In this document: one piece after another, positions 4,225 through 50,027 of the stretch
Position numbering within the stretch: the first letter of the stretch is position 1
How the letters are laid out: every line of letters begins with the position of its first letter
Origin: a virus
Direction: 5' to 3' (one strand)
IMG/VR virus record: IMGVR_UViG_3300005841_000032
Location: 46,428-110,427 of that record
DNA: 64,000 nucleotides
Program-made: the position numbers and the translations under genes
The notes under the pieces: generated by a model
The model's input: the letters and a program-made list of their open reading frames with translations, nothing else
What the model was told of the DNA's origin: nothing
Databases searched by the model: none

Positions 4225-4997
4225 CTTCTTATCAATTTTTTCAATTTACTAACCGACTTCAAATTAGATACAATACTATTAGCTGTCTTTTGCAATGAGG
4301 AAAATGAAAGATTCTTAATAGCTGATTTTATATTGGACAATCTTGACAGTATACTGTCTAATGGCGCAACCGCCACTAGTTGTAAACTATATGCGGGTAA
4401 CATATTATTTTCATTCTCATTTTGCGTATGAGTAAAATTAATCACCTCCACTTGGTAATTGTTGCCTAATATAGGATTATAAAAATATAAAGAATGCGGT
4501 TTACCATTTTCGTCTAATTGTTTAGACTTCTCTTTCATTGATTCTAAAATCTTAATGCATCCATATCCCGTCTTAGCAATAGAACTAAATTCTGGAATAC
4601 GTTGCTGCAATAAATTTGGAGGCGTTATTTTTGGCACTCCATTGTTAAGCGATAATCTAAATCCAGCTAATTCTACCCTTGTATTATTTACAAGTAATTT
4701 AAAGCGTCTACCAAATGTCCCCGAAATATTTATTGTGCTGGGTGTAAATGTTGTATTTTTCAATACGTATACTCCACCTATAGTCTTTCTTACATTAGTA
4801 ATTTCTTGTTGAGTTTCTCTTATTTCTTTTGGCAATACAGGCCAAGCAAAGTAATCTACAACATCACCGTTTGAATTTACAAGTTCTAACGCAAGCAAAT
4901 AGAATTCGACGTCATTCGAATAAATTGCATTAAGAGCGCCTCTTCCAAGTTCCTTAATTTTCTGATTAAAACTTAATTCTACAGCTTCTTTTGACAC
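4221..4997 (-). CDS. Baseplate / tube-initiator-like protein
   Basis: PVLPKEIRE...INISGTFG pattern and position within the baseplate module. Confidence 0.5.
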   Translation of the reverse strand: MSKEAVELSFNQKIKELGRGALNAIYSNDVEFYLLALELVNSNGDVVDYFAWPVLPKEIRETQQEITNVRKTIGGVYVLKNTTFTPSTINISGTFGRRFKLLVNNTRVELAGFRLSLNNGVPKITPPNLLQQRIPEFSSIAKTGYGCIKILESMKEKSKQLDENGKPHSLYFYNPILGNNYQVEVINFTHTQNENENNMLPAYSLQLVAVAPLDSILSRLSNIKSAIKNLSFSSLQKTANSIVSNLKSVSKLKKLIRR

Positions 4998-5256: not shown

Positions 5257-6072
5257 TTATTGAACAAATGACTTTTGACTTTTTAAATCTTCCAGTTGCT
5301 CTTTTAATTGAAGATATTCAGTAGAACTTCTTAGCGGATAAGGTCCCGCCGAATCATTTCCTAACGTATTTAAAATTGATTCTAAAAGACTTACTGTTTT
5401 ATTCCCCCTAAGTATAGGTTCATCAGATTCGTTTAATTGCACTGTATTAGAATTAATTAAACACCCATTCTCATCTATTTGTATTGATATTGGTTCACTT
5501 ACGCTATCCTTTTTATATTCTACCTTAAAACTAGTTGATGTTTTTATAGAAGTTACTCCATCGTTCACTATTTCTATATCTCCGTTAACATTAACGTTCA
5601 ATTTACCTCCTCTATCTTTATTTGTAACTTTTATTTCCAAATTTCCACTTCCTTGATCGCCATCTACTGAAAGTATAATTTTTCCTCTTCCGTCTATAAT
5701 AATTCCAGCCGTTCCAATTCCATTCTTTTTTATAAATCTAAATTGATCTTCCTTTTGAAATTGATATTGTTGAGGTGTATTAAAAACATCCATTACATAA
5801 AGTTTACCACTATAGGGAGCTTTAACACAAATTACATCAGAGCCAAAATCATCTATGGAATTTGGAAAATCAACAAGTTGCAAAGCTATTTTACCTATTC
5901 TTATATTATGTTGATATTCCCCATTTTCATTTGAGATGGTTACTGTATTCGTAAGATAACAATTTTTAATATAAACTTCTCTGTCTACATCGATAGGCAT
6001 AGCAATTCTCCACTCTGAAATATCATAGCGATTATCTGTCATGCCTACTGTTCCTATGCCATTGCTACTCAT
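5257..6072 (-). CDS. Baseplate central spike (gp5/gpV-like)
   Basis: Beta-repeat-like C-terminal half (LNVNVNGDIEIVNDG), EPILRGN motif; follows hub gene. Confidence 0.6.
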   Translation of the reverse strand: MSSNGIGTVGMTDNRYDISEWRIAMPIDVDREVYIKNCYLTNTVTISNENGEYQHNIRIGKIALQLVDFPNSIDDFGSDVICVKAPYSGKLYVMDVFNTPQQYQFQKEDQFRFIKKNGIGTAGIIIDGRGKIILSVDGDQGSGNLEIKVTNKDRGGKLNVNVNGDIEIVNDGVTSIKTSTSFKVEYKKDSVSEPISIQIDENGCLINSNTVQLNESDEPILRGNKTVSLLESILNTLGNDSAGPYPLRSSTEYLQLKEQLEDLKSQKSFVQ

Positions 6073-8435
6073 TTAACAAATTGTCTACGCTGTAAAAAAA
6101 AGTTAAAAATGTTGCGATTTACACTCCAGTTCTTTAAAAATCCTGAATTTTTTATAGAAGCATTTGTGTCAATGGAGGTATTGATAATATCAAAGTAACT
6201 AACCTTTTCCGGTTTAGCTCCAAATAATTCTACCTTGCCCTTAATATATTTTTCTATCATTCCTCTACTTACTGTTAAAATTGTATAACGGTCATTTAAA
6301 GTTCTTACATTTCTTACAGCGTCAACATAAAAAATTTCATCAGTTGGAACATAATAAATCATCATTCCAGATTTTATTCTTCTATCTCCATTTATAGTAA
6401 TAGTTCCTTGTCTTGTAAATGGCAAATACGCATGACTTTGAATAATGTATTGTAAATCATAAAAAGCTTGAGATTCAGCATACTCCATTTCTTTTTTTGT
6501 TACGCTGCTATCAATAAATTCCGTAGGCGAATAATTATACTCTATTTCATAAGATTTGTTGCCAAATACCTCCGCATATTCATCAAATACCACAATAGAG
6601 GCAAGCATAAAAGAAGACAATTCACTTCTTACTCCTAAACCTCTAGGGATTATTCTATACCATGAGTAAGCGTCATTGCTATAGCTTAAACTATCATTTA
6701 TTATATCTTGTTCCTTTATATCTATTACTAAATCACTAATAAGAGACTCTCTACCCAATCTAGTATCTTTTACAGATATTGTCGGCAACACAATTGCATT
6801 GTTTATTTCTGGTACTGAATTTCTACTTATGTTTCTAAGGCCCTTTTTTATCGAGCTTGTCAAATAATTTTTAGTTCTTGAAATATTGCCAAGAACGTTT
6901 ATTCCATCTTTAATATCTTCTACTTCAACATCTTTATAAACCATACCTCTATATCCTTGAGCGTCAAATGGCATTTTGCGAACTATGAAATAATATTTAT
7001 CTCCATAAGTATCGCCCCTAAATTCAACAAATGGTTCTTGACAAACTTTTTTTATACTGTTAATAATGCTTCCATTATCAGTGGAAATTGAATTATCCGC
7101 TAATACTCTATTGGCTGCGCTAGGATCAAAAACAAATTCAATTATTCTCCAAAGCCCTTGCCTTTCTTCTTGTAAAAATTTATTATTTAACGATTGTACA
7201 ATGGTATTGTCTGTTACGATACTGTATTTTTTTGCTTGCGCCCTTAATCCATATGAATTAAAAACACTATTTGGAATTAACCCAATGCTGGAAAACTTAT
7301 TGAAAATATATTTTAAGATTGTGCTTACGGGCTTAAAACTAGTTGCCGCTGCGCTAAGAAATCTGGATTCAGCCTCTATTAAATTTCTTTGTGTTAATAT
7401 ACTATCCGGATTATTAAATATTTGCGCTCCTATTTGCTCTGGGAAAAATATCGATCCGTCTTCTACTAATAATTTCATCAAATCTCTACCGGATACAGTG
7501 ATATTCTTATCTCTTGAACTGCTACTTGTATTAACTACATCAATTAGTCCAATCATATCGTATATGTTGCCCGGAACATCTTGGGGACCAAATGAACGGT
7601 CAAATAACTTATTTCTTTTTTCTGATTCCAAACCTTCAAACCTTATATATACAAGATCGTTTTCCTGTAATACTTTATCGAATAAAAAGTCGTTTCGTCT
7701 TAAAAAACTATCATTTTTAATCTCATATTTAGATATACTAGCAGTCGAAAGTATATCTTCTCTTATTCCGCCTGAATTACGTCCAATTACATTATCCATA
7801 ACCCACCCAGCCACTTTATCATAAACAGCAGCAACAGGCGTTAACCCTAATGCAAAAGAACCTAATTGACCATTTACACTTGTTTCAGCATATTCCACAA
7901 ATGAAGAAATGTCATACCAGTAACCTTCTTGATAATTACTTCCTATAAAAGTTGAGGAACGAATCCAAATATAAACAGATATATCATTGATTTGTTCTTT
8001 TAATATTTCCTGATCATTTTGATTTTTTATTATTGATATATAATTGGGATCAGTAAATAAATCTCTTAATGCCTTTGCAATAAAAGGTTTATAATCAGTT
8101 AGCTTTATTGTGTCGGGTACAATATTTGATTTTGTTACTTGCCTTTTTATTACTCCATTAGACAATACAACAGAAGTCCCTGACTTTATAATCAAATTTT
8201 CAGGAATGGTTTTGCTAAAAAGTTCTAATTCCTCTTTGGTATAATGAGATATTATTCTTTGATAATTATTCTTATCTAATTGATCTATAAATTGGCCCGC
8301 AGAAGTGATTTTAACAATTAAAGTATCAATAAATTTTTTTGCAGTAAAATCAGGAGCTAATTCAAATTGTGAAAGGAACTCGCCTACAGTTTGCTCATCA
8401 TCTACGCAAAATTCATTAAGGTCATTAATTAACAT
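6069..8435 (-). CDS. Baseplate hub protein
   Basis: After tape measure; ITVSGRDLMKLL and GTITINGDRRIKSGM motifs of hub/gpD-like proteins. Confidence 0.65.
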   Translation of the reverse strand: MLINDLNEFCVDDEQTVGEFLSQFELAPDFTAKKFIDTLIVKITSAGQFIDQLDKNNYQRIISHYTKEELELFSKTIPENLIIKSGTSVVLSNGVIKRQVTKSNIVPDTIKLTDYKPFIAKALRDLFTDPNYISIIKNQNDQEILKEQINDISVYIWIRSSTFIGSNYQEGYWYDISSFVEYAETSVNGQLGSFALGLTPVAAVYDKVAGWVMDNVIGRNSGGIREDILSTASISKYEIKNDSFLRRNDFLFDKVLQENDLVYIRFEGLESEKRNKLFDRSFGPQDVPGNIYDMIGLIDVVNTSSSSRDKNITVSGRDLMKLLVEDGSIFFPEQIGAQIFNNPDSILTQRNLIEAESRFLSAAATSFKPVSTILKYIFNKFSSIGLIPNSVFNSYGLRAQAKKYSIVTDNTIVQSLNNKFLQEERQGLWRIIEFVFDPSAANRVLADNSISTDNGSIINSIKKVCQEPFVEFRGDTYGDKYYFIVRKMPFDAQGYRGMVYKDVEVEDIKDGINVLGNISRTKNYLTSSIKKGLRNISRNSVPEINNAIVLPTISVKDTRLGRESLISDLVIDIKEQDIINDSLSYSNDAYSWYRIIPRGLGVRSELSSFMLASIVVFDEYAEVFGNKSYEIEYNYSPTEFIDSSVTKKEMEYAESQAFYDLQYIIQSHAYLPFTRQGTITINGDRRIKSGMMIYYVPTDEIFYVDAVRNVRTLNDRYTILTVSRGMIEKYIKGKVELFGAKPEKVSYFDIINTSIDTNASIKNSGFLKNWSVNRNIFNFFLQRRQFVK

Positions 8436-39483: not shown

Positions 39484-40001
39484 ATATAAATCTAAATTCT
39501 TTATAAGTATTTCTTTTTTCTTGAATTGCTTTGCCAACCATATATATTGACAAATTAATTGCTCTAGCATGATTACCACTGATATAATTACCCAAAATGT
39601 CTCCATTCATATTGCATACGGTAATAGATCTATAATTTTTCCTATGATGTCCAGCATTAATAGCATGATTCGTATTTTCTTTTGGCGTTAGCCATTTCTA
39701 AGTTAGTAGAACTATTATTTAATTTATTTAAATCAATATGATTAACTTCTGTTTTATTTATTAAATCATCATTTTTAACAAATGCTTTAGCAACAAGCCT
39801 ATGAACCGATCTAGTTACTTGTTTATTTCCATTTCTCATTTTAACAATTAAATAGCCATTATGTAATTGCTGCTTGATATTTACATTCAATTGCATCTTA
39901 TTCATTTTAGAACCGCGAATAAATCTTTGAATGTTGCCTAAATTACTTACTTTATAAAAGGGAACCTCTTCAACGATTCTCCAAATTTCTTCTTCACTCA
40001 T
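39476..40001 (-). pseudogene. NUMOD4-HNH homing endonuclease with +1 frameshift
   Basis: YKVSNLG, VHRLVAKAF, VNHIDLNKLNN; removing one A at 39695-39697 restores NLEWLTPKENTNHA through to YKEFRFIYE stop. Confidence 0.8.
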
Positions 40002-40776: not shown

Positions 40777-41391
40777 TCATTGTCCTTTCAATCCGTTATT
40801 TCCCGTTCTAACTACTACTATTGGTTCGAACTTCAAAGTTAATACTTTTTCTACATCTTTTATCCATCTATAATCTGCTGCCTTATACCCATCCCAATTA
40901 GCTATATTATTTTTACTATGATGCAAAAATAAACAAGGTGCGCCTATTTTACCTTTAACTATCTTTTTATTTTCTATAAAATCTTGTGGTGGTTTTGGTC
41001 TGCCTTTCCGCAACATCTGACAAATTACTCCTTCTTCTGGATTTGTTAACTTTGTCGAGATCGTCTCAAGGGAAAGACGGCTAAATAGAAAATCATCGTT
41101 GTCCAGAAATAAAAACCAGCCTTCGTTAACTAAATTCTTTAATTGATTAGAATAAAGATTCCAATAGAAGGGGTAATTCCTGTCTATCTCGGCATCGATT
41201 ATCCTAACATTAAAAGAATCATTCTCTGTCTGTTTTTCAGCATCTTTCCTTGCTTCTTCTGAATCACAGCAAATTATAACATTTAAATTTTTTACTATTG
41301 TTTGTTCTCTGACCGAATGTAAACAACGTCCCAATAATTCAGGACGATATTTATTGCGAATGAGAACGTTTATTAGGGGCTGACCGATCAT
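40777..41391 (-). CDS. GT2-like glycosyltransferase
   Basis: LINVLIRN, RCLHSVREQT, FLFLDNDD, ADYRW. Confidence 0.8.
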   Translation of the reverse strand: MIGQPLINVLIRNKYRPELLGRCLHSVREQTIVKNLNVIICCDSEEARKDAEKQTENDSFNVRIIDAEIDRNYPFYWNLYSNQLKNLVNEGWFLFLDNDDFLFSRLSLETISTKLTNPEEGVICQMLRKGRPKPPQDFIENKKIVKGKIGAPCLFLHHSKNNIANWDGYKAADYRWIKDVEKVLTLKFEPIVVVRTGNNGLKGQ

Positions 41392-41861
41392 TTCAATACC
41401 AATTCAGACTCTTTAACTAATTTGGTATTAAATCGTTCTATTACCAATTCAGCAGTAAATTTACTGCCGCCTTTTCCAGTACATGACTTAGAACAATATG
41501 GCCCCGCTTTACCTCTTTTTCTTTCAGTTAATACCCAATGTGCCTTTTCTCCTTCCCTGATAACATCTTTGTCGCAAACAGGACATATAAAGCCTACCAT
41601 TAATCTTTCAGCGTCTTGCAAAACATGAGTCAATCTATCTACAATTCTTAAATTACTTAATTCATCATTAGTAAAATCTTGATCTATATGATCAATAGTT
41701 TCATTGCCCATCAATTTTCTACCAATATGATGTTCAACTAGAAATTTTGGATAGCTAACAGTTGTGCGCTTCCCATTATTATCGATGCAAATATGCTTAC
41801 GTCCATCCTTTCTTAAATAAGGCCCATTTATATGGCCTGTATATAAATTACTTTTAATCAT
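41388..41861 (-). CDS. HNH homing endonuclease
   Basis: GRKLMGNETIDHIDQDFTNDELSNLR; CPVC...YCSKSC zinc motif; starts 4 nt after tRNA-Leu. Confidence 0.85.
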   Translation of the reverse strand: MIKSNLYTGHINGPYLRKDGRKHICIDNNGKRTTVSYPKFLVEHHIGRKLMGNETIDHIDQDFTNDELSNLRIVDRLTHVLQDAERLMVGFICPVCDKDVIREGEKAHWVLTERKRGKAGPYCSKSCTGKGGSKFTAELVIERFNTKLVKESELVLK

Positions 41862-41865
41862 ATTG

Positions 41866-41952
41866 TGCCCCGGGAAAGAATTGAACTTTCACGATCATTA
41901 CTGATCACAGAATTTTAAGTTCTGCTTGTACTACCATTTTCAACACCGGGGC
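41866..41952 (-). tRNA. tRNA-Leu (TAA)
   Basis: GCCCCGG/CCGGGGC acceptor, CAGAA-CTTAAAA-TTCTG anticodon arm, long variable arm, TTCAATT T-loop. Confidence 0.9.
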
Positions 41953-42066
41953 AAAAATAAACAAAGAAGCTCTACTCTGTTGGTCTTTTTACAAGGGCTG
42001 GAATGTGACACCTTTTCTCTGTTTAAATACAGACGCGCTCTCTGTTATACATGCGTAATTAAGAAG

Positions 42067-42140
42067 TAGCGGGAGCCAGACTCGAACTGGCGCATAAAAG
42101 CTTATGAGGCTTTCCTTCTACCAACTGAAAGTATCCCGCG
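42067..42140 (-). tRNA. tRNA with CAT anticodon (Met; initiator-like acceptor stem)
   Basis: CGCGGGA/TCCCGCT acceptor, AAAGC-CTCATAA-GCTTT anticodon arm, GCCAG-TTCGAGT-CTGGC T arm. Confidence 0.88.
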
Positions 42141-42703: not shown

Positions 42704-42713
42704 TCAATTTTTG

Positions 42714-42788
42714 AGCCCGTGGATGGAATCGAACCACCGACCTGTTGCTTACAAGGCAAACGCTCTAACCTACTGAGCTACATCGGGC
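42714..42788 (-). tRNA. tRNA-Thr (TGT)
   Basis: GCTC/GAGC D arm, TTGC-CTTGTAA-GCAA anticodon arm, GGTGG-TTCGATT-CCATC T arm; one bulged A in acceptor. Confidence 0.85.
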
Positions 42789-42934
42789 AATACACTGATT
42801 CTTTCTGTTTTAATTCCGTCAAATATAACTTCTACTTTCTTCAATTCAAACTTCTTTTCTTCAACTGCTTTCTTTTTCTTCACTTCTTCTTTGAAGAATT
42901 GCGGAATGATTCGTGTTTGCTGTTCTTGTTTCAT
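42770..42934 (-). CDS. Small Lys/Glu-rich protein overlapping the tRNA-Thr 5' end
   Basis: ATG 42934 lies just after the late-promoter motif at 42946-42956. Confidence 0.35.
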   Translation of the reverse strand: MKQEQQTRIIPQFFKEEVKKKKAVEEKKFELKKVEVIFDGIKTERISVLPDVAQ

Positions 42935-42941
42935 GTTTGAA

Positions 42942-43898
42942 TTATTTAAAAATACCATATTTGCGACTTAAATTTATACCATTACAATGACTTATCCAGC
43001 CATTATACGCGGCTACCGAATACTCATTCCTATTACTCTTAATCATTCGTTTAAAGTTCTCTTTTATACTTTTACGCAACAAAGAATAGTCAGGGAATAT
43101 TTTATAACCTAAGAAATCGATTCCTCTATCTTTTACCGGAAACACTTGATAATTATTCTTTATTTCCAATTTCAAATTATCCCATAAATACACTTGAATA
43201 TCTTCTCGCAGGTTATGAAGCCAATGTTTATCGTGATGCAGTATTAAAATGTCGTCACAATATCTAAACAAATATTTTACCCGTCTATCTTCTTTCAACC
43301 AATGATCAAAATATGTAAGGTAAAAATTAGCAAATAGGCCACTCAGGTAATTGCCTATCGGTAAGCCCGTTCCGCTATCTATAATTTCATCTAATAGCCA
43401 TAATAGCTTTCCATCTTTAAATTTTCGTCTCAGCAATTGTTTAAGTATTTCATTTGAGACATTTGGAAAGTATTTCTTAATATCCAATTTTAATGCATAC
43501 TTGGTTTCTTCTTTATTCCATAAAGCCGCTTTAACATCATAATATCCTCGATGAATTCCTCTACCAACAACGCAACTATACGTATTAGCTATAAATGATT
43601 TAGTTAGAATATCACCTATAACATTAACTATTGCATGATGACAGATACGATCCGGATAATATGGAAGACGCGCTATATCTCTTGCCTTTGGCTCATAAAT
43701 AGTGAAGTAAGAATATTCAGAAGTTTTATAAGTCATTTCTTTTAAACTTCGCTGCAAATCCTTAATATTCTCATCTTCTTGCTTTCGATGTTCAATTACA
43801 TCTCTATTCCATTTCTTCCCACGACTCGCATTTTTATCCGCCAACTTAAGATTATCTAAATCATAAATTTGCTCATATAAATTGCCAACTCTCTTCAT
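42942..43898 (-). CDS. DGR reverse transcriptase
   Basis: PDRICHHA, GRGIH, LKLDIKKYF, GLPIGNYLSGLFANFYL, RYCDD, GIDFLGY; 318 aa; no maturase/endonuclease domain. Confidence 0.96.
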   Translation of the reverse strand: MKRVGNLYEQIYDLDNLKLADKNASRGKKWNRDVIEHRKQEDENIKDLQRSLKEMTYKTSEYSYFTIYEPKARDIARLPYYPDRICHHAIVNVIGDILTKSFIANTYSCVVGRGIHRGYYDVKAALWNKEETKYALKLDIKKYFPNVSNEILKQLLRRKFKDGKLLWLLDEIIDSGTGLPIGNYLSGLFANFYLTYFDHWLKEDRRVKYLFRYCDDILILHHDKHWLHNLREDIQVYLWDNLKLEIKNNYQVFPVKDRGIDFLGYKIFPDYSLLRKSIKENFKRMIKSNRNEYSVAAYNGWISHCNGINLSRKYGIFK

Positions 43899-43909
43899 TT
43901 CTCTAAATA

Positions 43910-43972
43910 AAAGTCTCTTTCAATTACTTACTAAAGACTTTCCTTCTTACTTGATCTTTTGCCTAAGGGCAA
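43910..43972 (-). other. Structured TR-RT spacer (two hairpins)
   Basis: TTGCC-CTTA-GGCAA at 43959-43972 and AAAGTCT...AGACTTT at 43910-43941. Confidence 0.6.
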
Positions 43973-44011
43973 GGTTGACACATATTTAAATAGGTAGGGA
44001 AAATTTTTAGA

Positions 44012-44082
44012 GTTAGCCTCGCCTCCATATTCGAGTTGTAGTTCCAATTATTCGCATTAGAATTCAGCACTCAACTAGAAGA
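44012..44082 (-). repeat. DGR template repeat (TR)
   Basis: TCTTCTAGTTGAGTGCTGAATTCTAATGCGAATAATTGGAACTACAACTCGAATATGGAGGCGAGGCTAAC; AAY-rich, non-coding. Confidence 0.97.
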
Positions 44083-44100
44083 AACATTCTATGTGTAACG

Positions 44101-44676
44101 CTAAGCGGAAAGATAATCTTCATAAATATCTTTAAATTGTTTACCAGCATACAAAGCTGTTCTTTCATCCCTATATGAAAGCCCCGCCCCCAAAACCGAG
44201 TCGTAGTACCAAACACCCGCAACAGAAACCAGCACCCAACCAGAAGATTTTTTTTCGAACCAAGGGTACCACTTTGATTGAGATGAATTTTTATAGTCTT
44301 CCGTCCAGCCTTCATTAAGAACTTCTGCAATCAACTGAATTTTCGCAGCAGCATTCAATGCTTTTTGCTTCTTATTTTTTGGATTATTGAATGGAACAAC
44401 ATTCTCTTCCTCTTCACCTGCTAATTCAAGAATATCTTTCCATTTCAAATCACGATCAGTCAATGTGACTGATTTAAAAACATCAAAATACTTTTTCAGC
44501 ATTTCTTTCTGTGTTTCATTAGCATCGTTAAATGCTTTCTTGATCAAAGTTTCTTCTACCTCAATCGTATCGCCTGACTGCCATAAAGCAAGTTCAGTGA
44601 TTTTCTTTTGCCAATCTTGACATACTTGTCCGTAAATTGTTTGCAAATCTTTTCGTGAAATTTTCTGTGCTTTCAT
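44101..44676 (-). CDS. DGR target protein (191 aa)
   Basis: Contains the VR near its C-terminus; LNEGW...KWYPWF...YAGKQF scaffold. Confidence 0.93.
   Translation of the reverse strand: MKAQKISRKDLQTIYGQVCQDWQKKITELALWQSGDTIEVEETLIKKAFNDANETQKEMLKKYFDVFKSVTLTDRDLKWKDILELAGEEEENVVPFNNPKNKKQKALNAAAKIQLIAEVLNEGWTEDYKNSSQSKWYPWFEKKSSGWVLVSVAGVWYYDSVLGAGLSYRDERTALYAGKQFKDIYEDYLSA
44177..44247 (-). repeat. DGR variable repeat (VR)
   Basis: TCTTCTGGTTGGGTGCTGGTTTCTGTTGCGGGTGTTTGGTACTACGACTCGGTTTTGGGGGCGGGGCTTTC; 19 mismatches to TR, all at TR adenines. Confidence 0.97.
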
Positions 44677-46357: not shown

Positions 46358-47289
46358 ACCAAAAAATCTTGACCGTTAAACTTCACCAATACCTTTGGTC
46401 TGTTTGATGTTTTAGGTTTGCTCTTATCTGTTTCAAATGAGGTTCCGTTCCATACGGAACCTTCTTTATATTCTACCGCCAAACATCGACACCTCGGATG
46501 TATTGCGACTAAAGTACTTTTCCAGTCTTTTTGTTTCCTCCCGATGTTGCTTCCATTTGCCTCTAATTCTTTTAGTGTAAATATCTTTGGCTCACTTCCT
46601 TCTCCGCCTGTCAGGTAAAGCTTTACGCAACTTGGGCAAGCTGACGGTTGGACTCTGAACCACACTTTTGCTTTCTCGTTATCTCCGTCATTCTTTCTAA
46701 GCACCATTGCAGCCCTTCCTTCATTTAATGCAGTATGAGAGATATATTCTACCGACTTTCTGAAATCTCTACTCCAATCGCCCGTAAGACGTCCTATTTG
46801 CCTTGCTATCTCTTTCTTGCTTTTCCGATCTCCCGTTCCAGTTGCCATTTGATCCTTTAAATACTCTTCCTGATTTGCCCTTGCGTTCCCAAATTGGTTA
46901 CTGACTACATTGTTCACGTCTTTGAATATGCGCTCGTTTGCCAATCTTATATCGGACATTGATTGCATCTTTATACTATTGATCGTTGCCCTTTCTCTTG
47001 CATTCAAGGGAATGTATGCGCTGGAAGTCACATAATCTTTTAATTGATTAAATGTAATATTTTGAACTTGTTTTTCTGATAAAATTTTAGAAAGCAATCC
47101 AAGATGAAAGTTCAATTCTACTAAATCCTTACTTTCATCGTAAAGCTTATCGGCGTTTATTCCATTGTCCTTTAAAACCTGCTTTTCTCCATCTGAAAGA
47201 TAGTCCCCGCCCAATGTGGTTGCGCTGAATAAAGCTGTTTGCCTCTGAATGAGAGCCAGTATAGTTTGTACTTGTTGTGGAGATAACAT
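46354..47289 (-). CDS. Head morphogenesis protein (Mu gpF/SPP1 gp7-like; start revised to 47289)
   Basis: ACPSC...HPRCRC motif; downstream of portal. Confidence 0.8.
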   Translation of the reverse strand: MLSPQQVQTILALIQRQTALFSATTLGGDYLSDGEKQVLKDNGINADKLYDESKDLVELNFHLGLLSKILSEKQVQNITFNQLKDYVTSSAYIPLNARERATINSIKMQSMSDIRLANERIFKDVNNVVSNQFGNARANQEEYLKDQMATGTGDRKSKKEIARQIGRLTGDWSRDFRKSVEYISHTALNEGRAAMVLRKNDGDNEKAKVWFRVQPSACPSCVKLYLTGGEGSEPKIFTLKELEANGSNIGRKQKDWKSTLVAIHPRCRCLAVEYKEGSVWNGTSFETDKSKPKTSNRPKVLVKFNGQDFLV

Positions 47290-48008: not shown

Positions 48009-48393
48009 CTCTTCTTATAAAGAAGTTCACTGCCTCAATTCCAAAGGCTCCAGTTAACGTCCCAAATACAAATATCTCTCTTACTTGAACAGCGTAAAAT
48101 ACTTCAAGTAATCCAAATAAAACAAATAATTTAATGCACCACGCCGTAGAATAATGGATCAGCATTGAATTAAAATCTTCTTTATTAAATTTATTATCGC
48201 TATCCTCTATACCGTCCTTTAACCATTTTCTAAAACTTGGAACAAACATAAATCCCAACTCAGGCAAAAATAGCATAAAGCAAAAAATAGGGAATAGAAA
48301 ATGATAATCTATTCCTGCTAATGCCATTGACGCAAAGGCGGCAACGAAGCGCAATGAAAACATATACCCCAAAACAGAAATTATCTTTATCAT
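47995..48393 (-). CDS. Multi-pass membrane protein (holin candidate)
   Basis: Four hydrophobic segments and a basic C-terminus. Confidence 0.5.
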   Translation of the reverse strand: MIKIISVLGYMFSLRFVAAFASMALAGIDYHFLFPIFCFMLFLPELGFMFVPSFRKWLKDGIEDSDNKFNKEDFNSMLIHYSTAWCIKLFVLFGLLEVFYAVQVREIFVFGTLTGAFGIEAVNFFIRRGEKK

Positions 48394-50027
48394 TCTACGT
48401 TTACATATTTAGCTTCAAAAAATTCATCAAATGCTTTTTGAAATGGACTTTCCTCTTCCATTAAAAATGGATTTGTATTTGATTGTCTTTCTTCTTCTTT
48501 TTGTGAGTCTTGCTGATCTTGTTCTTGTTGCCCTTGCATTTCCATTTGCTGTTGCTGCATAAACAATGGATTCAAGGGAAGGTCGGCGGCTTTAGATTTA
48601 AGCGGTTTTAATTTTTTCCCAGCCCTTATCTCATTGGGAGTTAAATAAACAGTTGCAGCCTTTAATAGTCTTTCTTCTTCTTCAGATGCACTTTCAACCT
48701 CTAATCCAGCAAACTGGAATTCAAATTGTCTATTAGTAAGAGGGAAAATTATAAACTCATTAATCCAAGTCTGCATATAAGTCAATAAGGGTTTCAATCC
48801 CTTATTAATCGAATAATCTTTTTCCTGTTTACCTCCCTCCTTACTTCCCATTCCACCCTGCCTTGTACCTTGCAATGGGAAACCTATTTCTTCCGGCGAT
48901 ATTGTGTATACTGCACAGGCTAACTTAATCATCAGTTCATAGAATGCAGAATATTCCATGTCTCTATTGGTTTTCTGCATGTCAACCCAATCAACATTTT
49001 CAGCATCCAAAATCAAAGTTTTGCCGTTATTTTCAGCACCTGCGATCATTGCTTGCCAGTCGCGTCTTATTTGTTGTATGGCATCAGCCTGTATATTGCC
49101 TTTCTTTACAAACAAAGCTCCTTTTGGAGAGGAACCAGTTTTGAATATTGATCCATTATAACGATCTGCATTCAATAGATTAGTTACAGTAGTTATTAAT
49201 ATTTCTAATTCACTTGTCCCATATCCATTTGAATAAATACTTGTTGTTGGATTTCTTAATCCATAGCATAATTCCCAAGGATAAAATTCTGCTTTAATTA
49301 ACCCATCTATTACTTGAACATATTTGGGCAAGTATCCATTTACTCTTGTTCTTTCATGTTTATTTACATCGTTATTTGCCGTATCTGCAAACCTTACTGT
49401 TGCTCCATCTACTGCAACAAACATAGATGGCTTACCCATCCTTGTAGGTATTACCTCAAATGCAGCAAAGTCACCTACCAAAGAATCAGTAAGTACTTTT
49501 TTGCCAAACGTATCGAAATTATCTAAATCCCAAATGTTCTCTTCGTTACCGCAATTATTAATAAAATTGGTAAGGTATTCAATAATACGTTTATCCTGAT
49601 TCGTTAATTCATCTTCACTATTTACGCCTTTCTTTTTAAATTTGTAACCATTAGAATATCTATAGGGTTGAGGTTTAAGAAAATCACCTAGTTGATCTTT
49701 TCTTGTTTTAAGAATTGCAGCAATAACAGGAGTACGCGACATATTGCGTAATATGTTTCCTGTGATTCCGCCCGGGGAATAATATCCGTTTGTGCTGGAT
49801 ACATTGTACGGATCAATAATGATAGATTTCATTCCCTCAATCGGGGGCTTATATCTATCGTTTAATAAGTTGCTTTGCTGATAATAATTTTGCGCTTTAA
49901 ATATAGCGTCTACATCGCCTGACTTAACGGCGTTTTGAAGGGCTAACGCTTTTTGGATTTGTAATTTTCGTTCCGTTTCGTCAAACTCTCTAAGTTGCTT
50001 AGCGATATTTTGCCCATGAAGTGACAA
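48390..50027 (-). CDS. Portal protein
   Basis: AVDGATVR, RNPTTSIYSNGYGTSELE, CAVYTISPEEIGF, KGLKPLL, TPNEIR. Confidence 0.92.
   Translation of the reverse strand: MSLHGQNIAKQLREFDETERKLQIQKALALQNAVKSGDVDAIFKAQNYYQQSNLLNDRYKPPIEGMKSIIIDPYNVSSTNGYYSPGGITGNILRNMSRTPVIAAILKTRKDQLGDFLKPQPYRYSNGYKFKKKGVNSEDELTNQDKRIIEYLTNFINNCGNEENIWDLDNFDTFGKKVLTDSLVGDFAAFEVIPTRMGKPSMFVAVDGATVRFADTANNDVNKHERTRVNGYLPKYVQVIDGLIKAEFYPWELCYGLRNPTTSIYSNGYGTSELEILITTVTNLLNADRYNGSIFKTGSSPKGALFVKKGNIQADAIQQIRRDWQAMIAGAENNGKTLILDAENVDWVDMQKTNRDMEYSAFYELMIKLACAVYTISPEEIGFPLQGTRQGGMGSKEGGKQEKDYSINKGLKPLLTYMQTWINEFIIFPLTNRQFEFQFAGLEVESASEEEERLLKAATVYLTPNEIRAGKKLKPLKSKAADLPLNPLFMQQQQMEMQGQQEQDQQDSQKEEERQSNTNPFLMEEESPFQKAFDEFFEAKYVNVE

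Follow-up and report, generated by a model that had tools for sequence, protein, structure and literature searches.

The 64,000-nucleotide stretch of viral DNA analyzed here (the window) corresponds to positions 46,428 to 110,427, the right-hand 64 kb, of IMG/VR record IMGVR_UViG_3300005841_000032, a complete virus genome of 110,427 bp and 33% GC. A 1,735 bp segment of its minus strand (42942–44676) carries what is very probably a complete diversity-generating retroelement (DGR) of the lineage that lacks the accessory protein Avd and is organized as target, template repeat and reverse transcriptase, in a Bacteroidota phage of about 110 kb. Read along the minus strand, the cassette begins with a target gene (44676→44101; 44101..44676), an open reading frame (ORF) of 191 aa whose 71 nt variable repeat (VR; 44247→44177) is in frame and encodes residues 144–167. 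A gap of 18 nt separates this gene from the template repeat (TR; 44082→44012), which is non-coding, 71 nt long and contains 22 adenines. There follow a 113 nt spacer (43899..44011) with a structured RNA similar to the RT-17 motif, and finally the reverse transcriptase (RT) gene (43898→42942), an ORF of 318 aa.

There are several informative features of the TR/VR pair. First, the two sequences align over 71 nt without gaps and differ at 19 positions, all 19 of which are adenines in TR; only 3 of the 22 TR adenines are unchanged in VR, and the remaining 49 non-adenine positions are all identical (hypergeometric P = 1.8e-14 for 19 of 19 mismatches falling on 22 A sites). Second, the substitutions comprise 11 A>G and 8 A>T, with no A>C. 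Third, when TR is placed in the VR reading frame it contains seven AAY codons, and 20 of the 22 adenines fall at the first or second position of a codon; in theory VR could encode about 8e11 different protein sequences. Finally, a scan of the entire 110,427 bp genome with the adenines masked finds just two copies with no non-A mismatches, the runner-up standing at 24/49, and thus there is one TR, one VR and no remote target. A preliminary description of this DNA had reported the same order of elements within 1.74 kb and the same ungapped alignment, with its 19 adenine differences and 49 identical non-A sites, and both are reproduced exactly on realignment. It had taken the pattern as a signature of mutagenic retrohoming, a reading borne out by the P value above and by the affinities of the RT (see below). 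It had also called the cassette very compact, which is correct as to size, but this is the norm for the Avd-less lineage (PMC7290462; PMC5758913) and not a special feature.

The reverse transcriptase

The RT is intact, as had been proposed, with a full-length ORF and its catalytic motifs in place. It matches the Pfam family RVT_1 (7.6e-14) and phrog_1423 (1.4e-115), and its closest solved structure is 8ub7_A (E = 2.4e-43), which is the brt protein (bRT) of Bordetella phage BPP-1, an identity confirmed by tblastn; group II intron and retron RTs match at about 1e-11. It retains the motif A aspartate, the YCDD motif, and both R73 and an isoleucine that are the equivalents of bRT R74 and I181, which we take to be residues that influence adenine mutagenesis. 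Its identity with RTs from many crAss-like phages is also 45–53%, with crAssphage LMMB (44.6%) among them.

These relationships bear on whether the locus might instead be no DGR at all, but a chance repeat lying beside a retron, a group II intron or a defense RT. Models of defense RTs (DRT), retrons and group II introns do match the window RT in a generic manner, but every one of these matches falls below its curated cut-off, and the best match remains bRT, by some 30 orders of magnitude. Chance would have to account moreover for the adenine-only pattern, with the probability given above, and for the recurrence of the whole cassette in dozens of other loci. We regard this explanation as extremely improbable.

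The similarity of the RTs together with the shared architecture suggests that the window RT belongs with lineage 3 of Wu et al. 2018, or DGR clade 1 of Roux et al. 2021. Lineage 3 DGRs lack avd (Wu et al., PMC5758913), and crAssphage LMMB has a DGR of the form TG-VR-TR-RT (TG being the target gene), likewise with no avd, whose RT was placed by its authors in the Avd-less lineage 3 (PMC7290462). The window cassette shares this order and the lack of avd with the DGRs of crAss-like phages and of Bacteroidota (LMMB, PMC7290462; cr52_1, NC_055888; PMC5758913). It is like the BPP-1 DGR (mtd-avd-TR-brt) in the adenine-specific transfer from TR to VR and in having TR immediately ahead of the RT gene, with a structured spacer, and unlike it in having no avd and in its shorter TR (71 nt, compared with 134 nt in BPP-1). 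The window DGR appears to be an ordinary member of a published Avd-less lineage, joined to a target family that has probably been catalogued and is uncharacterized.

The spacer RNA

The preliminary description had proposed that the spacer is structured, and an alignment of 55 TR–RT spacers agrees, with compensatory changes in all 11 of the 11 predicted pairs. The consensus consists of a hairpin, ACCUUGCC-loop-GGCAAAAAAU, and a bipartite stem around an invariant GUA...GAA. The window copy retains the covarying helices and conforms to the family alignment both in hairpin 1 (TTGCC-CTTA-GGCAA; 43959–43972, minus strand) and in stem 2, the bipartite stem with the GUA...GAA internal loop (43910–43940, minus strand). 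A covariance model built from the 55-spacer alignment, in which the window is itself a training sequence, finds the motif at the same position in 18 untrained bacterial loci with scores of 66–110 bits, and among untrained phage loci in crAss phage cr52_1 (48.8 bits) and, with a weak match, in Psychrobacillus phage Perkons.

Three relatives of the cassette (L141, L121 and L029) pass the gathering score of the Rfam model RT-17 (RF03020) at exactly this position. The series RT-1 to RT-19 was described from the vicinity of RT genes, without an assigned function (Weinberg et al. 2017, PMC5737381). The RT-17-like motif lies here between TR and RT, the same place as the BPP-1 spacer RNA, and studies of these cassettes would give the RT-17 motif a role.

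Related cassettes and their diversification

Searching IMG/VR with a profile built from target homologues yielded more than 500 loci, 83 of which are covered by the detailed counts that follow. An RT homologue (47–58% identity) is located just downstream of the target in 74 of the 83 loci, and adenine-specific TR/VR pairs in the same order are present in 70. A typical cassette contains between one and three small targets in tandem; the VR of each matches a single TR of 63–87 nt, after which come a spacer of about 100 nt and an RT of about 313 aa. When the ORFs of 57 distinct loci are clustered, the target and RT genes are the only universal ones, and none of the flanking ORFs tested in the window matches a Pfam family at E<=0.1, so that none is Avd-like. 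Since the target and RT alone are universal and there is no Avd-type Pfam match beside the window cassette, we conclude that there is no accessory gene, whether of the Avd or of the HRDC kind. Bacterial genomes carrying the family are almost all from the Bacteroidota (Chitinophagaceae, Flavobacteriales, Sphingobacteriales and Bacteroidales), with a few from the Ignavibacteria. Cultured, non-pathogenic strains with a related prophage include Epilithonimonas sp. UC225_85, Soonwooa buanensis DSM 22323 and Dyadobacter sp. Leaf189.

Among 112 TR/VR pairs of the family there are 1,556 mismatches at adenines and 38 at non-adenines. The mean proportion of TR adenines substituted is 69%, and the replacing base is G in 57% of cases, T in 29% and C in 14%, although pairs with high substitution are under-counted in these figures because the blastn-based detector missed the window pair itself, which differs at 27% of its sites. 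The window substitutes 86% of its TR adenines, at about the 95th percentile of family pairs. The proposal that its C-free and near-saturating spectrum is unusual was considered and rejected, as 12 of the 112 pairs have no A>C and the probability of seeing none in 19 is about 0.05; given this and the family spectrum, the window lies at the upper edge of its family and is not exceptional.

The sequences of close relatives show diversification directly. Loci L043 and L044, from different samples, are 99.93% identical over 8,152 nt, and all six of their six differences fall within 160 nt of VR, at TR-A sites, with TR unchanged (P≈6e-11). Likewise, in the pairs L066/L079 and L048/L051 all VR differences are at TR-A positions. 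Since TR-A positions within VR are the only sites at which L043 and L044 differ, the family is evidently active in nature. The preliminary description had suggested recent activity from the intact RT and the clean pattern of the window element; such activity is shown for these relatives only.

The two closest IMG/VR relatives, L004 and L005, have at about 5680–6300 a second small target downstream of the RT, and then a second adenine-rich repeat; these may constitute a second TR/VR pair and hence a two-template cassette. The window has no second target downstream of its RT.

Earlier publications already cover the element class, the Avd-less architecture and how abundant it is in Bacteroidota phages, and as a DGR the window cassette adds little to these. 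It is valuable because it exemplifies, in clean and minimal form, a type of cassette with an unexplained target, the target family having thousands of members and a confident structural model. With two proteins and one RNA in 1.7 kb, it is also an attractive minimal system for the study of Avd-independent mutagenic retrohoming.

The 3′ end of the variable repeat

In the window, homology between TR and VR stops within 1 nt of the last substituted adenine, and there is therefore no long unmutated sequence corresponding to the initiation of mutagenic homing (IMH) site, a further difference from BPP-1. VR nevertheless resembles BPP-1 in having a GC-rich 3′ end with an adjacent hairpin. The GC-rich stretch, GGGGGCGGGGCTTTC (44177..44191, minus strand), is a candidate IMH equivalent, and its TR counterpart, GGAGGCGAGGCTAAC, would be IMH*-like.

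The related cassettes suggest how this end may be read. In all 27 of the 27 related pairs that have the TR 3′ anchor GTCAGYTCNCACCTATG, VR has G, G and T in place of the three 3′-most TR adenines, a fixed set that includes one synonymous change (CTA>CTT); the adenines upstream vary freely. An example of such fixed differences at the TR 3′ end is seen in L008 at 4940–4958. The window VR follows this pattern at its 3′ end, where the changes GAG>GGG, AGG>GGG and CTA>CTT produce a GC-only run, GGGGGCGGGGC. From these sequence comparisons it seems probable that the last three to five TR/VR differences are fixed differences of the IMH/IMH* type that happen to fall on adenines. There are two consequences. 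First, the preliminary description had the number of adenines right, at 22, but the 4^22 variants it derived from them are an upper bound and not the true diversity, since the 3′-most adenine differences are probably fixed; about 17–19 adenine positions are likely to be truly diversified in the window VR. Second, counts of diversifiable adenines in this lineage are inflated, because fixed 3′ differences pass for adenine mutagenesis.

A perfect 7 bp inverted repeat, CTTTCAT-N6-ATGAAAG (44162..44181, minus strand), straddles the 3′ end of VR and is a candidate target-site hairpin that recalls, by analogy, the one in BPP-1 (PMC3240598). Comparable inverted repeats occur in this genome once per approximately 913 nt. 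Across the family the VR 3′ junction folds at −4.04 kcal/mol, more stably than controls, random or shuffled, which give −2.36 and −2.99 kcal/mol.

Proposed mechanism and activity of the window copy

A mechanism can be proposed by analogy with BPP-1. TR and the structured spacer 3′ to it would be transcribed, probably along with the target and RT genes, and the RT would bind the RT-17-like spacer RNA and reverse-transcribe TR, inserting wrong bases opposite the adenines of the template. VR would then be replaced by the resulting cDNA, a step guided at the 3′ end by the GC-rich IMH-like stretch and the adjacent hairpin and at the 5′ end by plain homology. About 17–19 adenine-templated positions would be rewritten in this manner, recoding one face of a β-strand and the loop that follows it on a small helical scaffold, and neither Avd nor any other accessory protein would be involved.

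The cassette could instead be a frozen or weakened DGR, one that records past retrohoming but whose RT or RNA in this particular copy is now inefficient, and several observations weigh against a fully functional element. First, the DGR motif [I/L/V]GxxxSQ reads IGNYLSG in the window RT (Gly at residue 185, window 43345–43347); the Gln of this motif is present in 49 of 51 related RTs and in bRT, and the window has Gly (the RT of one relative, L049, has Ala at the same position). Second, the spacer scores 30.9 bits (E = 0.0026) against RT-17 and does not reach the gathering score of 40.4, and in the family covariance model it scores 55 bits, below the 18 bacterial loci and above the two phage loci. 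Third, the 3′ end of TR departs from the family-usual GTCAGYTCNCACCTATG. Fourth, exact-pattern scans of IMG/VR and the JGI metagenomes find no second copy of the window phage from which VR polymorphism could be read. Finally, TR positions 44071–44073 are TGA in the VR frame where VR has TGG (44236–44238), encoding the conserved Trp147, and faithful copying of that TR adenine would therefore introduce an in-frame TGA and truncate the target; among 111 related TR/VR pairs, only L010 shares a TGA at this Trp.

Set against a loss of function, the RT ORF is full length with all of its catalytic motifs, and TR, the spacer helices, the VR frame and the 3′ hairpin are all intact. Moreover, not one of the 49 non-adenine sites differs between TR and VR, which argues against a long period of drift following inactivation. 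The unusual TR 3′ end may mark a sub-lineage, because the close relatives L005 and L010 also differ there from the bulk of the family. A frozen or weakened element thus seems unlikely, and the window copy may be capable of mutagenic retrohoming.

The target protein

The target protein has a helical N-terminal part (residues 1–70) and a C-terminal variable domain (residues ~75–191). It has no family match in Pfam, NCBIfam or PADLOC, no sequence relative in the PDB, no C-type lectin (CLec) among its matches, and no tblastn match among the INPHARED GenBank phages. It does match phrog_11581, the function of which is unassigned in PHROG, and it matches none of the PHROG structural families. The target family is large, with 5,146 representatives at E<=1e-3, mostly of 150–165 aa and including some tandem fusions; longer fused forms, for example with fiber domains, were not found, in a search that provides weak evidence. 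Members conserve the sequence ALNEGWxPDWxNxNQxKYYPWF, followed by approximately 20 hypervariable residues and then GSRLCFKSxELAxYAGKQF.

An AlphaFold2 (AF2) model of residues 75–191, computed with 137 sequences, has a pLDDT of 92.3 and a pTM of 0.86, and consists of two helices, a long β-hairpin, a loop and two C-terminal helices. No solved structure with a matching fold was found. VR maps to the second β-strand and the following loop, and in the model the residues encoded by AAY codons alternate along this strand and continue into the loop. The scaffold is not recognizably that of a CLec, although it could be a very divergent one.

A 925 nt contig encodes a 134 aa protein (P0001) that is 99% identical to the N-terminal 130 residues of the target. 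The contig ends just short of VR, which would fit an assembly break at a hypervariable site.

The target differs from those of the better known systems. Unlike the BPP-1 target, the tail-fiber tip protein Mtd, it has 191 aa with no CLec match and continues for 25 codons after VR. The Avd-less DGRs of crAss-like phages and Bacteroidota cited above rewrite tail-collar or tail proteins that exceed 400 aa and carry Mtd- or sulfatase-like annotations, whereas the window target is small, stands alone and belongs to another family. There is a point of contact with the DGR of cr52_1, which shares with the window both the spacer RNA motif and a VR peptide ending in a similar G-S-R-L type motif. Profile comparison of the two targets gives a weak alignment of the 26-column VR segment and of nothing else, and since only this segment aligns, the template-encoded hairpin appears to be shared across scaffolds. 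The VR-encoded C-terminus of the cr52_1 protein (...VGSRLTYIP) resembles the GSRLCF motif of the small targets. The cr52_1 tail-protein target gene (1495–2736 of our locus L085, NC_055888) contains two in-frame TAG codons. Stop-codon recoding occurs in some crAss-like phages and would fit these TAG codons.

A probable match exists in the catalogue of Roux et al. 2021 (PMC8144416), in which all annotated VR domains are C-Lec and viral DGR targets are mostly tail proteins. Its Supplementary Note 8 describes PC_00007 as 'Phage_other', from FCB phages, with 1.6% of members predicted to be structural. VR lies at about 0.72–0.77 of protein length in PC_00007 and at 0.75 in the window target, and both are from mixed biomes and FCB phages and are judged non-structural or unassigned. 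The target family is therefore probably PC_00007, matched by description and not by sequence.

Genomic context and possible roles of the target

The nearest match to the terminase of the source phage comes from Chryseobacterium phage MA9V-3 (43.5%), with other Flavobacteriia phages next, and the virus is a phage of Bacteroidota, probably with a host of the order Flavobacteriales. It is not crAss-like, despite the similarity of its RT to those of crAss-like phages. The DGR cassette is located in a head-morphogenesis region, with the portal gene (48390–50027) on one side and the protease and major head protein genes on the other. Among the relatives, the commonest annotated neighbors are a Mu-type transposition protein, a MuB-like ATPase, Gam, a DNA methyltransferase and primase, none of them structural. 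Because the window cassette has head, tRNA and HNH genes as neighbors and those of the relatives usually have early or replication genes, its position is not conserved and the cassette is moron-like.

The window context is in keeping with the target being a virion protein, such as a receptor-binding adaptor, a fiber-tip adhesin or a capsid decoration, that would serve host-range switching in the manner of BPP-1. DGRs with RTs of the same lineage rewrite tail proteins in crAss-like phages, one of which, in cr52_1, has the weakly alignable VR segment, and phage DGR targets in general are mostly tail proteins (Roux et al. 2021, PMC8144416). On the other hand, the commonest annotated neighbors in the relatives are non-structural, and the variable, moron-like position also counts against a part in the virion, as does the lack of fiber-domain fusions (within the limits of the weak search) and, if the family is PC_00007, the small proportion of its members predicted to be structural. 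A virion role strikes us as somewhat unlikely.

The relatives' early or replication-gene neighborhoods point toward a target that acts in or on the infected cell, for example as a diversifiable binder for counter-defense or host takeover. Such a non-virion role is consistent with the small size of the protein and its lack of a match to PHROG structural families, and with the one to three tandem paralogues per cassette. There is a precedent in Quimbyvirus, which has a non-structural second DGR target beside methyltransferases that is described as having a C-type lectin domain (Benler et al. 2021, PMC8008677); that target is like the role proposed here in being non-structural and unlike the window target in its lectin domain. 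Against this, the target has no similarity to known anti-defense proteins, and in the window it is surrounded by head, tRNA and HNH genes and not by early ones. We put forward a role inside the infected cell only tentatively, and our best guess is the broader one that the target is a diversifiable binding protein other than a tail fiber.

A more specific proposal would combine these elements, in that a large phage-specific family presents a variable β-hairpin on a non-CLec helical scaffold and acts outside the virion, for example as a rapidly re-aimable binder of host defense or takeover targets. Taken as a whole this combination is doubtful, but if true it would add to the DGR variable proteins a second class, distinct in structure and function. 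Identification of the ligands of the target would test the assumption that phage DGRs serve receptor recognition only.

Three tRNA genes, all on the RT strand, lie downstream of the RT: tRNA-Thr-TGT (42713–42788) directly so, followed by tRNA-Met-CAT (42066–42140) and tRNA-Leu-TAA (41865–41952). A 62 aa ORF (42770–42958) overlaps tRNA-Thr and is probably spurious. Two HNH homing-endonuclease genes, matching phrog_14913 and phrog_59 (41388–41861 and 39657–40001, respectively), flank the tRNA island, and the tRNA/HNH region beside the DGR looks like an insertion zone for mobile elements within the head-gene module.

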